A stretch of 31,117 bases of DNA from an uncultured Flavihumibacter sp. (GTDB lineage: Bacteria; Bacteroidota; Bacteroidia; Chitinophagales; Chitinophagaceae): assembly GCA_964237295.1 (NCBI GenBank), contig CAXSIE010000001.1, forward strand, positions 2,137 through 33,253, in the 5' to 3' direction. This document shows, one piece after another, positions 25,950-28,951 of the stretch; the stretch's first letter is position 1; the number at the start of each line of letters is the position of its first letter. The position numbers and the translations under genes are program-made. Under the pieces are notes generated by a model that saw only the letters and a list, made by a program, of their open reading frames with translations, was not told the DNA's origin and ran no database searches.

Positions 25950-26787
25950 TTATGCTGCTTGTAAGTAATTGATGGCATCAGGAATAAAGACATGCGATTT
26001 ATGTTCAAGGTACTGATAAGCAACCAGAGCTGATAAGATGTTAGCCAACCCATGCAAGGGGTTACGATGACGCGAATGCTCCACATTGCATACAGTGGCC
26101 AGGATATCGTTAACCGATTCTATAACAGCGCGCTGTTTAAGCAGCCTGATATCACCCGGCAGCGCAGCTAAGGGTTTCATGTTCTTCTTTGGCCGCACCA
26201 ACAGGTGAAGCCCTTGTTCATAGAAGGTAACAAACAAGGTGGTTAAGTACCCTTTATCTGCACTATATTTTCCTTGCAGACCTTTCAGTAAATAAGAGAG
26301 CACCTCTTTGTTGTTGTCAGCTGTGTGACCGGCTGTAACCAGAAAGTTTACTATCTCTCCCAGATGATTGATGACCAGGTGCAGCTTCAGGCCATAAAAC
26401 CATCCGTTGCTGCTCTTGCCTTTGGAGGCTTGTTCACTAACTACTTTGTGGCTCTTTTCACGCTTGATGTGACAGACTTCCAGCTTTTTGGAATCGATAA
26501 AGTAGTGGTTTCATCAAATGAAATTTCGTGAAGATTACCTGATAATATATCTCGGCCAGCAGCTTAAAAGGAAGGAGCACCAATGTAAGGCGGGAAAGTG
26601 AATAATACGAGTGTTTGCGGGTAAGAATTGCGTAAAGTACCTGGTAAATTCTACTTACATTTCCAGCCACTTCCAAAATCCATGCTTCATGACGCCCAGA
26701 AAAAAGAACAAGCCGATCAAAAAGAGTACTATTAACCAGTACAGGGTGACGCGGGTGGGTGGATGACGGCGGTAGGACATCTATCAA
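25950..26787 (-). mobile_element. IS982-family transposase remnant (frameshifted pseudogene)
   Basis: Continuous frame from about 26505 to 25950: YFIDSKKLEVCHIKR...GKSSNGWFYGLKLHL...AD...ADKGY...KQRAVIESVND...HSRHR. In-frame stops lie just upstream (about 26510-26516) and the N-terminal part is degraded; TIRs not identified, so boundaries are approximate. Confidence 0.9.
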
Positions 26788-27336
26788 AGTTTTAAGGTAT
26801 TCACTAAAAGAGTCGGTTGCGGTTTGGTAGGATAGTGGAATTGGGGTGGGTGACTGGGATTTAAAATTAAAACTATTGAAAGTTTTGTGCTTGCTAATTG
26901 ATTATTACATTTGTTTTCACTGTATCTTAATCTGCTCTTCCTTATCTATCTTTACTTTCCTGTAGAATTACGGTGTTTAATAATAATTCAGGGTTTGGCA
27001 AGGTTTGACAATATCCCTTTAATTCTGCTAAAAACCTGTTAGCGTTTATAGCTTTTTTCAACAGAAACGGACTGTCTAAATCAATTTCTGGTGGAAGACT
27101 AAGTAAACTATTATAAGGAAGATCCGGATTTTCCTACACAATAATGTATTTATTATAAAGGTAATAAAAGGATATATTTATATTACCAAAAAATATAAAC
27201 ATATTAAGGGCATATGTTTATAATGTAGATGTAATGTGAATAACCTAAATTTAGCTCTTAACAATAATAACAGATAAATGTAAATGTAAAATCAGTGATC
27301 ATCTTACTTTTTGATTAAACTTTATTCGAACTACCT

Positions 27337-27783
27337 ATGGCCAACGCAGAGCAGCTTGAAATATTGAAACAGGGGGTTGAGGTTTGGAATGAGTGGAGAG
27401 TAAAGAATCCTGAAATAGTTGTTGACTTAGCTAGAGCAGAATTGTCTTCCCTCGATTTTGAATAAATTAATTTAAGCAGAGCTTATCTGAGCAGAGCTAA
27501 TTTTACAAGCGCTTGCCTGAAGGGAGCAGACCTTAGTAGTTCAGATCTTTCCAATGCAATTATGCATCATGTAAACCTTGAAAATGGAAATCTTCATAAT
27601 TCGAACCTAATGGCCGTTGAATTAACTCGTTTAACAGATCCTAGCAGCATATCACATGAATTAGCTACTATAATTCCATTTTTAAGGACCACGCCAGTGT
27701 TGCCAATTAAATTAAAGGATCAACTGGTTACAGTATGTTTACTGACTACCAAAAAGCATACAACTGGGTCTTCCAACCCATGA
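27337..27783 (+). pseudogene. Pentapeptide-repeat protein pseudogene
   Basis: MANAEQLEILKTGVEVWNEWR...DLARAELS, in-frame TAA at 27463-27465, then INLSRAYLSRANFTSACLKGADLSSSDLSNA in the same frame; C-terminal part is non-repeat. Confidence 0.85.
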
Positions 27784-27908
27784 GTACCCAGACGGCCCAT
27801 CTTTTATAGCCGAACTATCCAGCATCATCGCCCCGGCAAATGAAACGGCTGAAGCGTTCAGGAGGAGAGAGTAAAAACTAGGAAGTGGGCAACCAACGGG
27901 CAACTATA

Positions 27909-27950
27909 TAAAAAATGGTGTATTGATTGTCATTCAATCAAATACACCAT
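27909..27950 (-). terminator. Intrinsic terminator of the tRNA-like RNA pair
   Basis: Minus strand ATGGTGTATTTGATTG-aatga-CAATCAATACACCAT (15 bp, one bulge) followed by a T-run; starts 7 nt past the 3' end of the distal RNA. Confidence 0.82.
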
Positions 27951-27957
27951 TCAAATG

Positions 27958-28127
27958 CTGTAGAGGGAGGACTCGAACCTCCACGGAGTAGTTAGCCTTA
28001 GCACAAAGTTCAGTGGTCGACCCTGGTCGCTCCGGTATTGCTACAAGAACGGCTCTATGCTACGTTTATCCCAATTCCCCACCCCCGAGACAAGAGGGCA
28101 TGTCTGCCAAAATTTCATCACTCCACA
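27958..28127 (-). ncRNA. tRNA-like RNA copy A (GUC anticodon, 99-nt variable-arm domain)
   Basis: Acceptor TGTGGAG/CTCTACA + G73; D arm ATG..AAATTTTGGCAGA..CAT; anticodon arm CCCTC-TTGTCTC-GGGGG; T arm GGAGG-TTCGAGT-CCTCC. Confidence 0.85.
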
Positions 28128-28137
28128 TTATTACAAG

Positions 28138-28307
28138 CTGTGGGAGAAGGACTCGAACCTCCACGGGGCAGTTAGCTATTGCACAAAGTTCAGTGGTCGA
28201 CCCTGGTCGCTTTTATATTGCTATAAAAGCGGCTCTATGCAACGTTTATTCAGAACCCCCACCCCCGAGACAAGAGGGCATGTCTGCCAAAATTTCATCA
28301 TCCCACA
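28138..28307 (-). ncRNA. tRNA-like RNA copy B (GUC anticodon, 99-nt variable-arm domain)
   Basis: Acceptor TGTGGGA/TCCCACA + G73; D and anticodon arms identical to copy A; T arm GGAGG-TTCGAGT-CCTTC; 180-nt period with a 10-nt spacer. Confidence 0.87.
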
Positions 28308-28364
28308 TTTAAATCAATGAACTGATTAGTATCAAAAGAATGCCTTCAACAGATAATCATGATG

Positions 28365-28397
28365 CAATATTAATACAACTACCCCGTTAGTTACAAA
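28365..28397 (-). promoter_or_regulatory. Putative Bacteroidota housekeeping promoter for the tRNA-like pair
   Basis: Minus-strand TTTG (28397-28394)-N21-TAATATTG (28372-28365) versus consensus TTTG-N19-21-TAnnTTTG (one mismatch). Confidence 0.5.
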
Positions 28398-28480: not shown

Positions 28481-28951
28481 ATGGCGGTTAAATTTAATCT
28501 TGACAAATTGGATATTCAAATTATTCATGAAATGGTAGAAGATGCGGAAATATCTTATGCCGAACTCGGAAAAAAATTGTTTGTTTCCGGCGGTACCATT
28601 CATGTAAGAATTAAAAAACTTCAGGAATATAAAATAGTCCGGGGTACAAGGTTGGCAGTAGATTTGAAGCAGCTGGGATATGATGTTATCGCTTTCATAG
28701 GAATTTACCTTGAAAAAAGCTCATTATACGATGCTGTAGCAAAGGAATTGAGAAAGATACCCGATATTGTACGACTTAACTACACTACCGGCAATTATAG
28801 CATGTTCGCAGAAATTATTTGTAAAGATATCAACAAGCTTAGGTTTGTTTTACATGATGAACTGCAAAAAATAAAGGGTATCGAACGAACAGAAACCTTT
28901 ATTTCCCTGGAAGAAAGTTTTTCGAGAAACGTTCAGATTACTATGGATTAA
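28481..28951 (+). CDS. Lrp/AsnC family transcriptional regulator
   Basis: LDKLDIQII...ISYAELGKKL.VSGGTIHVRIKKL HTH; RAM domain YTTGNYSMFAEI...IERTETFISL. Confidence 0.95.
   Translation: MAVKFNLDKLDIQIIHEMVEDAEISYAELGKKLFVSGGTIHVRIKKLQEYKIVRGTRLAVDLKQLGYDVIAFIGIYLEKSSLYDAVAKELRKIPDIVRLNYTTGNYSMFAEIICKDINKLRFVLHDELQKIKGIERTETFISLEESFSRNVQITMD

Follow-up and report, generated by a model that had tools for sequence, protein, structure and literature searches.

A tandem pair of aspartate-type tRNA look-alikes with giant variable arms in an uncultured Flavihumibacter, probably acting off the ribosome

Introduction

What is the product of a tandem pair of 171-nucleotide (nt) genes that are shaped like tRNA genes throughout, and yet are missed by tRNA finders and by Rfam? 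The pair lies on the minus strand of a stretch of 31,117 nt from an uncultured Flavihumibacter sp. (Bacteroidota, Chitinophagaceae; assembly GCA_964237295.1, contig CAXSIE010000001.1, positions 2,137 to 33,253), all of which is referred to here as the window. The two copies, A and B, are 86% identical and lie 180 nt apart. ARAGORN calls no tRNA gene in the window or in 13 homologous loci, and no tmRNA in the window, and no Rfam family, RF00005 included, reaches its gathering score on the window, where matches up to E = 10 are at chance level and include C/D-box snoRNA models. An original prediction, made from the letters of the window, held that each copy carries a 99-nt insert that forms a covarying structured domain on a tRNA scaffold. 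Comparison with homologs bears this out: the arm folds into a branched domain whose helices covary, on a body shaped like a tRNA, and the giant-armed RNA is widespread and, with its arm included, very abundant in soil RNA libraries. The RNA is an unannotated look-alike of aspartate tRNA and probably works off the ribosome.

Structure of the tRNA body and of the variable arm

Each copy forms a full cloverleaf with an acceptor stem of 7 base pairs (bp), U8-G9, a 3-bp D stem closing a 13-nt loop with GG, a 5-bp anticodon stem, a T arm and a G73-C74 end, so that the acceptor/T branch is of the 7/5 type. The acceptor of copy A, UGUGGAG/CUCUACA, is a compensatory swap relative to that of copy B, and the anticodon loop UUGUCUC and the T arm GGAGG-UUCGAGU-CCUYC are found in both copies. 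Across the family U8, A14, G18G19, U48 and the T-loop residues U54, U55, C56 and A58 are each conserved to 98-100%, with UUCGA in the T loop; among these tertiary-core columns only G18G19 fall within the pattern used for searching. The RNA is not a tmRNA, since the anticodon arm is present and the window's genome, G000, has a separate tmRNA. The 99-nt insert corresponds exactly to the whole variable region, its limits being the U that follows the anticodon stem and the U that precedes the T stem, and its predicted boundaries are correct in both copies (Table 1).

The structure was assessed in 121 homologs, in which 96.1% of the cells hold standard pairs, compared with 84.4% in column shuffles (0/500 reach the observed value) and 48-58% when the partners are slid by one to three columns. 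Both sides have changed in 36 of the 46 pairs, including every pair of the arm helices. The two helices at the base of the arm, helices 4 and 5, are paired in 99.6% and 95.7% of cells with double changes, and helix 8 has double changes in all nine of its pairs with 87% of cells paired. The body behaves in the same way, with double changes and paired cells of 98.5% in the acceptor, 96.3% in the D stem, 99.5% in the anticodon stem and 100% in the T stem. RNAalifold, run on a MAFFT alignment that had not been fitted to the structure, recovers the acceptor, anticodon and T arms together with the base and helix of the variable arm. The two copies by themselves offer few compensatory changes. Folding of single sequences gave z = -2.58 for copy B and z = -0.18 for copy A; thermodynamics alone thus give no support for the structure, and it is the family alignment that supplies the proof.

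The arm starts with a basal stem of 4 bp, whose predicted sequence is confirmed for both copies (B, GGGG/CCCC; A, GGGG/CUCC). In the family the stem takes the forms GGGG/CCCC, GAGG/CCUC, GGAG/CUCC and GAAG/CUUC and is followed by a bulge of 3-4 nt, above which lies a 3-bp helix (CAG/CUG, CGG/CCG, AAG/CUU and others). The internal loop that follows, RAYAAA/CUAA, is the most conserved element of the arm and the sole near-universal one in cellular homologs, with its letters A-Y-A-A-A and C-U-A-A conserved to 97-100% each, in columns that lie outside every search pattern. Beyond this loop a 10-bp helix (helix 6/7), in which the predicted double change between the copies is seen as U-A to A-U, leads to a three-way junction from which hairpins 8 and 9 branch.

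Hairpin 8 had been thought to be rewritten between the copies with its pairing and its GCAA loop preserved. The loop is indeed GCAA in both copies, but copy A forms only eight of the nine pairs and has one U.C mismatch. Across the family this hairpin is freely rewritten: a GNRA cap is present in 58 of 93 hairpins (GCAA in 41), and 47 of the 140 members with the conserved motif lack the hairpin, so that a GNRA docking contact cannot be essential to the family. Hairpin 9 (N-G/GG-UNGA-CC-A-C-N', 4-5 bp with a bulged A) is present in 185 of 248 distinct members, with a loop that reads UUGA, UCGA or UAGA. Covariation is seen at the second outer pair (G-C in 64, A-U in 63 and U-A in 33). The other 63 of the 248 lack the core of the hairpin, and the shortest members have a simple arm only. 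The segment CGACCAGGGTCGACCACTGAAC, singled out as invariant, is identical in both copies, but its invariance holds only within the genus; outside it the segment varies (GACCRGGGUYGACCAC...), and it forms the UNGA hairpin rather than a single-stranded module. A partner-binding role of hairpin 9 is plausible. The total length of family members ranges from 90 to 212 nt and that of the variable region from 17 to about 140 nt, the shortest being a plain class II arm of 17-24 nt.

Two other readings of the same letters were rejected. The string UGAUGA...CUGA resembles C/D-box or k-turn elements, but its UGAUG part covers U8, G9 and the D stem, a helix with covariation of its own (AUG/CAU to ACG/CGU), and CUGA is the 3' strand of hairpin 9. 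A pairing of GACCAC with the 5' strand GUGG of the acceptor was likewise discarded, since members with a UGUAGGG acceptor still keep GACCAC.

Identity elements

The genes end with G73-C74, and the same rule applies to 30 of the 34 tRNA genes of G000 (N73-C74, with only the first C of CCA templated), the other four ending in CCA or CC. The five strong aspartate determinants that have been documented (PMC9976931), namely G73, G34, U35, C36 and C38, are all present in both window copies. G73 is conserved to 99% across the family, and in 71 phage members that were retrieved with the loop unconstrained G34 is found in 68, U35 in 71, C36 in 71 and C38 in 69. In these members the anticodon stem covaries around an unchanging YNGUCUC loop. 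U occupies position 37 in 68 of the 71, and position 33, which is U in 81%, C in 12% and G in 7% of the alignment, can be U, C, G or A over all members, so that the RNA departs from the usual combination of U33 with a purine at 37. U37 and the variable position 33 count against ordinary decoding.

The end of the acceptor stem differs from that of tRNA-Asp. G2-C71 is present as in bacterial tRNA-Asp, but G1-C72 is replaced by U1-A72, which occurs in both window copies and, although unconstrained in the search, in 112 of 114 host members. The identity of the bacterial amidotransferase GatCAB rests on U1-A72, so that the enzyme accepts Asp-tRNA-Asn and rejects tRNA-Asp (PMC1635274). A canonical tRNA-Asp was not found in the assembly of the window's own genome. 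Four related genomes, rated complete or near-complete (100% by marker genes), do carry one alongside the RNA, and the idea that the RNA is the sole tRNA-Asp of its hosts was therefore rejected.

Abundance and retention of the arm in RNA

Contigs from four soil RNA libraries, taken from four studies, map only to 27954-28313 and to neither flank, with summed depths of 10^3 to 7x10^4. The bins over the arm are as deep as those over the body, and in run X7 the depth is highest over hairpin 9 (59,010, compared with 24,649 over the 5' body). These depths are from contigs summed over related organisms, so that the evidence for retention is supportive and not final. No joint removing either variable region was seen in the soil RNA contigs; a single joint, 28176 to 28255, was reported, which falls within the copy B arm and fits short-armed relatives, not an excision. 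Unitigs cross the 5' junction of the arm, with the pieces listed overlapping junctions by 10-25 nt on the short side, which is less than the 31-nt bridging rule. The insert, for which a splicing check had been proposed, is accordingly retained as far as these contigs indicate.

Distribution and phage members

Homologs were found in 33 of 61 related genomes by BLAST and the covariance model (CM) R1, and a pattern scan gave more than 120 loci in named Chitinophagaceae, Saprospiraceae, Cytophagales and Flavobacteriales. Overall the family ranges over Chitinophagaceae, Saprospiraceae, several Cytophagales, some Flavobacteriales and many phage contigs. All phage members came from a pattern search of IMG/VR; blastn against deposited phage genomes gave no match. 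On the IMG/VR contigs the RNA lies inside tRNA arrays, often beside a phage tmRNA. Among 51 phage loci with tRNA neighbours, a canonical tRNA-Asp accompanies the RNA in four, a rate like that of tRNA-Lys, tRNA-Phe and tRNA-Ala; this gives no substitution pattern, and the RNA is thus not a simple replacement of tRNA-Asp. A canonical tRNA-Asp is lacking from five phage records, of which two are at least 94% complete. ARAGORN recognises only the phage members of 90-97 nt, as tRNA-Asp, and finds nothing in long members.

Several further features of the phage members were observed. Three members of 90 nt have AUC in place of the GUC anticodon and keep U37 and C38 (L205:10577-10666, L263:6924-7013 and L291:2746-2835). 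Phage contigs of 52-161 kb carry their own tmRNA in the same tRNA array as the giant-armed RNA, with a tag peptide that ends in ...FVGADYAVAA (Table 1). Among 73 members with arms of the phage type, 66 have a palindrome of 6-12 nt with perfect Watson-Crick complementarity, placed 2-3 nt after the UNGA hairpin, e.g. GCUUGCAAGC, UUGUGCACAA, GCGCGC, GCUAGC or GCCGGCCGGC (members such as L200:2645-2816, L207:720-891 and L258:598-768; alignments A4 and A5). The central four bases of the palindrome are self-complementary as well, which is beyond the need of a plain hairpin and suggests RNA dimerisation or a site that acts at the DNA level. The sole comparable palindrome in the window is GGUCGACC, within hairpin 9. 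Some phage members (e.g. L196:2737-2907, L198:4790-4958 and L227:1472-1643) have an insert hairpin of about 20-25 nt in the D loop, and together with the giant arms these indicate that the D loop and the variable region can both expand in this family.

Genomic context

The gene for GatB is present in all 33 RNA-positive relatives and in all 28 RNA-positive genomes of a class-wide sample; the RNA without GatB was found in none. When GlnRS-positive genomes are counted as having GatB and RNA, GatB only, RNA only or neither, the relatives give 30/3/0/10 (Fisher p ~1e-7) and the class sample 12/4/0/35 (Fisher p ~1e-8), counts and p values that come from genomes that are not phylogenetically independent. 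The class tally holds 111 GatB-positive genomes including G294 (unpublished), which stands outside the GlnRS-positive table. AsnRS is present in 61 of 61 relatives, the set in which it was checked. With GlnRS and AsnRS present, GatCAB is not needed for translation. AsnA was found in two genomes only, both of which lack the RNA and GatB, too few to weigh. In three genomes of family f99 (G247, G285 and G319), all with GlnRS and without the RNA, the GatB_N domain lies in an open reading frame (ORF) of ~1110 amino acids (aa) and scores lower than usual; this GatB may be fused or divergent.

An Lrp/AsnC-family gene is the divergent upstream neighbour of the RNA in 71 of 100 loci, at a median distance of 149 nt, in Chitinophagaceae, Flavobacteriales and several Cytophagales. 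The putative promoter box of the pair, TAATATTG, was recognised by its letters, and TAnnTTTG-like boxes precede the RNA in about 100 homologous loci, at distances that vary. The box lies far upstream of U1, which implies a leader that RNase P would remove. Between the box and U1, 5-15 nt upstream of the mature 5' end, many Chitinophagaceae loci (e.g. L036, L045, L081 and L103) have a conserved GTTCTTAAA-like motif, which might be a processing or regulatory signal.

Downstream of the pair the window has fragments of a DDE transposase (25950-26787, with ORFs of 117 and 109 aa) and ~1.1 kb that is poor in ORFs (26790-27900), whereas in 16 related loci, mostly of Chitinophagaceae, a TrmB-like methyltransferase gene (PF02390) stands there instead. 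Local synteny in the window looks disrupted by an insertion sequence. The downstream neighbours were rejected as functional partners, as TrmB (16 loci) and an AMP-binding enzyme (12 loci) are each limited to one order and reflect local synteny.

Table 1. Positions of the two tRNA-like genes, of the parts of their arms and of associated features (window coordinates unless a phage contig is named)
Feature	Coordinates	Strand	Remarks
Copy B, tRNA-like RNA gene	28137..28307	-	U1 28307, G73 28138, C74 28137; CM 192 bits; acceptor UGUGGGA/UCCCACA, D stem AUG/CAU, anticodon arm CCCUC-UUGUCUC-GGGGG, T arm GGAGG-UUCGAGU-CCUUC
Copy B, variable region (99-nt insert, giant variable arm)	28163..28261	-	
Copy B, arm base, 5' strand	28243..28260	-	GGGG, bulge, CUG, AAUAAAC
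Copy B, helix 6/7, 5' strand	28233..28242	-	UUGCAUAGAG
Copy B, hairpin 8	28209..28230	-	GCUUUUAUA-GCAA-UAUAAAAGC
Copy B, hairpin 9 region	28189..28208	-	same sequence as copy A
Copy B, helix 6/7, 3' strand, to arm base	28165..28188	-	helix strand, AGCUAA loop strand, CUG, CCCC
Copy A, tRNA-like RNA gene	27957..28127	-	U1 28127, G73 27958, C74 27957; CM 189 bits
Copy A, variable region (99-nt insert, giant variable arm)	27983..28081	-	
Copy A, arm base, 5' strand	28063..28080	-	4-bp stem GGGG, bulge AAU, 3-bp helix UGG, loop strand GAUAAAC(G)
Copy A, helix 6/7, 5' strand	28053..28062	-	UAGCAUAGAG; all 10 pairs with double changes
Copy A, hairpin 8	28029..28050	-	GUUCUUGUA-GCAA-UACCGGAGC; peripheral, variable; GNRA-capped in window
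Copy A, hairpin 9 region	28009..28028	-	GACCAGGGUCGACCACUGAA; core CAG-GG-UCGA-CC-A-CUG, bulged A
Copy A, helix 6/7, 3' strand, to arm base	27985..28008	-	CUUUGUGCUA, loop strand AGGCUAA (C-U-A-A conserved to 98-100%), 3-bp helix CUA, basal CUCC
Intrinsic terminator hairpin and U tract, directly 3' of copy A	27910..27951	-	from sequence; weak Rfam terminator-like match 27904-27951
Putative Bacteroidota-type -7 promoter box	28365..28372	-	TAATATTG; ~58 nt upstream of mature 5' end
Divergent Lrp/AsnC-family regulator gene	28481..28951	+	156 aa; PF01037, PF13404; 173 nt from RNA 5' end
Phage tmRNA sites	L169:1341-1732, L173:3393-3776, L178:598-986, L185:9574-9957, L188:370-761, L190:6630-7021		

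Possible functions

The reading that we favour, at a probability of roughly 45%, is that the RNA would be a non-decoding carrier, in which the arm acts both as a handle for a partner and as a tag that excludes the RNA from the ribosome. The RNA would mature like a tRNA, with RNase P cutting the leader and the encoded C74 being completed to CCA. AspRS would then charge it with aspartate by reading the GUC, C38 and G73 marks, and U1-A72 would recruit GatCAB to convert the attached aspartate off the ribosome. A handle for a protein partner could be formed by the RAYAAA/CUAA loop together with the UNGA hairpin, so that a particle is assembled. The bulk of the arm, together with U37 and the unfixed position 33, would bar EF-Tu and the ribosome and so keep a potentially miscoding Asp- or Asn-charged GUC RNA from decoding, and the arm would also mark the RNA as distinct from tRNA-Asp. 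The divergent Lrp/AsnC protein, as an amino-acid sensor, would set transcription. The complete model, an off-ribosome aminoacyl carrier that AspRS loads, on which GatCAB converts aspartate, that an AsnC-type sensor switches and that phages borrow, is doubtful as a whole.

A number of points weigh against the carrier reading. Class II synthetases such as AspRS approach the tRNA from the side of the variable arm, and charging might therefore be hampered by an arm of 99 nt. The D loop is also read by GatCAB, for which a supernumerary nucleotide (U20A) acts as an antideterminant; the 13-nt D loop of the RNA is of the class II type and cannot be mapped to the class I rule. In phages the gene stands within tRNA arrays and the regulator is not seen, an arrangement that would suit a role in translation no less well. 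The link to Lrp does not extend to Saprospiraceae, Cyclobacterium, Belliella, Algoriphagus or Fulvivirga; moreover, the regulator is assigned to family level only. The co-occurrence with GatB has to be read with the shared ancestry of the genomes in mind. AsnB-family genes occur in 55 of the 61 relatives, with or without the RNA, so that the RNA is not the sole route to asparagine, and a role as a substitute for asparagine synthetase is not supported for the same reason. Finally, GatCAB beside AsnRS and GlnRS may make asparagine on ordinary tRNA-Asn (PMC4206432).

The short members that ARAGORN calls tRNA-Asp, the phage genes placed in arrays beside tRNA-Met, -Leu, -Thr and -Ser and tmRNA, the phage records without a canonical tRNA-Asp, and a 3' end and leader that resemble those of tRNA genes would all fit a working, decoding tRNA-Asp isoacceptor of the class II type, whose enlarged arm is tolerated, perhaps with a use in regulation or stability, and does not prevent EF-Tu and the ribosome from using the tRNA. 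Such a role is nevertheless unlikely. A nearly invariant U37 and a position 33 that can be any of the four nucleotides are both almost never found in decoding tRNAs, hosts retain the canonical tRNA-Asp, and in phages the RNA does not substitute for it (4/51). In addition, the near-invariant unpaired nucleotides of the arm point to selection on the arm itself.

The RNA could also be a decoy or sponge, i.e. an abundant look-alike of tRNA-Asp that titrates a reader of the GUC loop or of the elbow (e.g. an anticodon nuclease, a modification enzyme or a stress sensor), the arm providing another site of binding. Nuclease-resistant or decoy tRNAs are known from phages, and the very high depth in RNA libraries, the invariant GUCUC loop on a covarying stem and the presence of the RNA in phages agree with such a function. 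It is rated quite unlikely, however, as no candidate partner gene is linked to the RNA and as the invariant U1-A72, the G73-C74 end and the tie to GatB would be left unexplained.

Charging by SerRS through the long arm and G73, as proposed for allo-tRNAs, with recoding or mistranslation of GAY codons as the outcome, is very unlikely. A long arm with G73 is a serine signature, and GUC is a predominant anticodon of allo-tRNAs (PMC5389517). The branch is 7/5, however, and not 8/4 or 9/3, the anticodon loop is poorly suited to decoding, and all five strong aspartate determinants are present. U1-A72, U3-A70 and U11-A24 also differ from the serine identity set, into which G2-C71 does fit.

That the insert is an intron or processed spacer, removed to leave a tRNA of ordinary size, might be suggested by its site between the anticodon and T arms and by its variable length (17 to ~140 nt), but this is extremely improbable in view of the depth over the arm interior, the unitigs across its 5' junction, the sole joint inside the arm of copy B, the continuation of class II variable-stem geometry in the arm base and the gradation of short members into normal class II arms. 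The suggestion that the RNA is Y-RNA-like and binds Ro (Rsr) through its GUCGA segment is barely credible. In its favour stand a loose sequence resemblance and the tRNA-like module of YrlA-type Y RNAs (PMC4201824); against it, there is no TROVE domain in the genome (93% complete; Deinococcus and B. thetaiotaomicron controls were positive) and, as had been stated, none among the window proteins, no Rfam match was obtained even at E = 10, the termini form an acceptor stem and not a Ro-binding helix, and G-U-C-G-A is the loop of the small hairpin, with a second loop base that varies among U, C and A.

We know of no described tRNA or tRNA-like RNA with a 100-nt multi-helix variable arm that bears its own conserved modules, and no description of this giant-armed family was found in the literature searched. 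If the arm is a handle on an Asp-charged RNA addressed to GatCAB, this would be a new metabolic use of the tRNA fold and a possible reason why some Bacteroidota keep GatCAB despite having GlnRS and AsnRS; under the full carrier model the RNA would represent a new class of tRNA-derived metabolic cofactor. Should the RNA decode after all, it would show how much extra RNA on a tRNA the translation machinery tolerates.

Comparison with known systems

The body of the RNA is most readily compared with class II tRNAs and in particular with bacterial tRNA-Leu, with which it shares the 7/5 branch, the 3-bp D stem and the large D loop with G18G19. Its D arm AUGAAAUUUUGGCAGACAU is of the same type as that of the genome's tRNA-Leu, GCGAAAUUGGUAGACGC, the variable stem likewise begins directly after position 44, and U48 precedes the T stem. 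The family CM matches ordinary tRNAs of 84-88 nt at 35-57 bits. The variable region of class II tRNAs is roughly 13-21 nt long, whereas here it has 99 nt and conserved internal modules. In contrast to tRNA-Leu, the RNA has G73 and not A73, the loop GUCUC, U37 and an unfixed position 33.

With tRNA-Asn of the AspRS and GatCAB (transamidosome) pathway the RNA shares U1-A72, G73, a predicted aspartylation and an occurrence only in genomes that carry GatB. Unlike tRNA-Asn, it has the Asp anticodon GUC in place of GUU, a giant arm and a class II D loop. With GUC instead of GUU, a discriminating AspRS could charge the RNA, and the product would be unsafe in decoding. The setting also differs from that of the tRNA-Asn pathway, as AsnRS and AsnB-like genes are present in RNA-bearing relatives too.

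Allo-tRNAs resemble the RNA in their long variable arm, in G73, in having GUC among their predominant anticodons and in being non-canonical tRNAs of uncertain use (PMC5389517). Their branches are 8/4 or 9/3, their D arm resembles that of tRNA-Sec, and they come from Clostridia, Proteobacteria and Acidobacteria (Mukai et al. 2017, PMC5389517), whereas the RNA has a 7/5 branch, a Leu-type D arm and an arm that is several times longer, and is found in Bacteroidota and their phages. The bacterial Y RNA YrlA likewise joins a tRNA-like module to an extra protein-binding module within a stable non-coding RNA (PMC4201824), a binding role that is only putative here. The topology is reversed, however: the ends of YrlA form the Ro-binding helix and those of the RNA the acceptor stem, and here neither a Ro gene nor an Rfam match accompanies the RNA.

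The staphylococcal non-proteinogenic tRNA-Gly is a tRNA-shaped RNA with a non-decoding role that is kept beside the normal isoacceptor. The same applies to tRNA-Other of B. cereus (PMC3399842), and in this respect both resemble the giant-armed RNA. Both are, however, of normal size, so that it is the structured 100-nt arm and the Bacteroidota-wide spread that set the giant-armed RNA apart from them.

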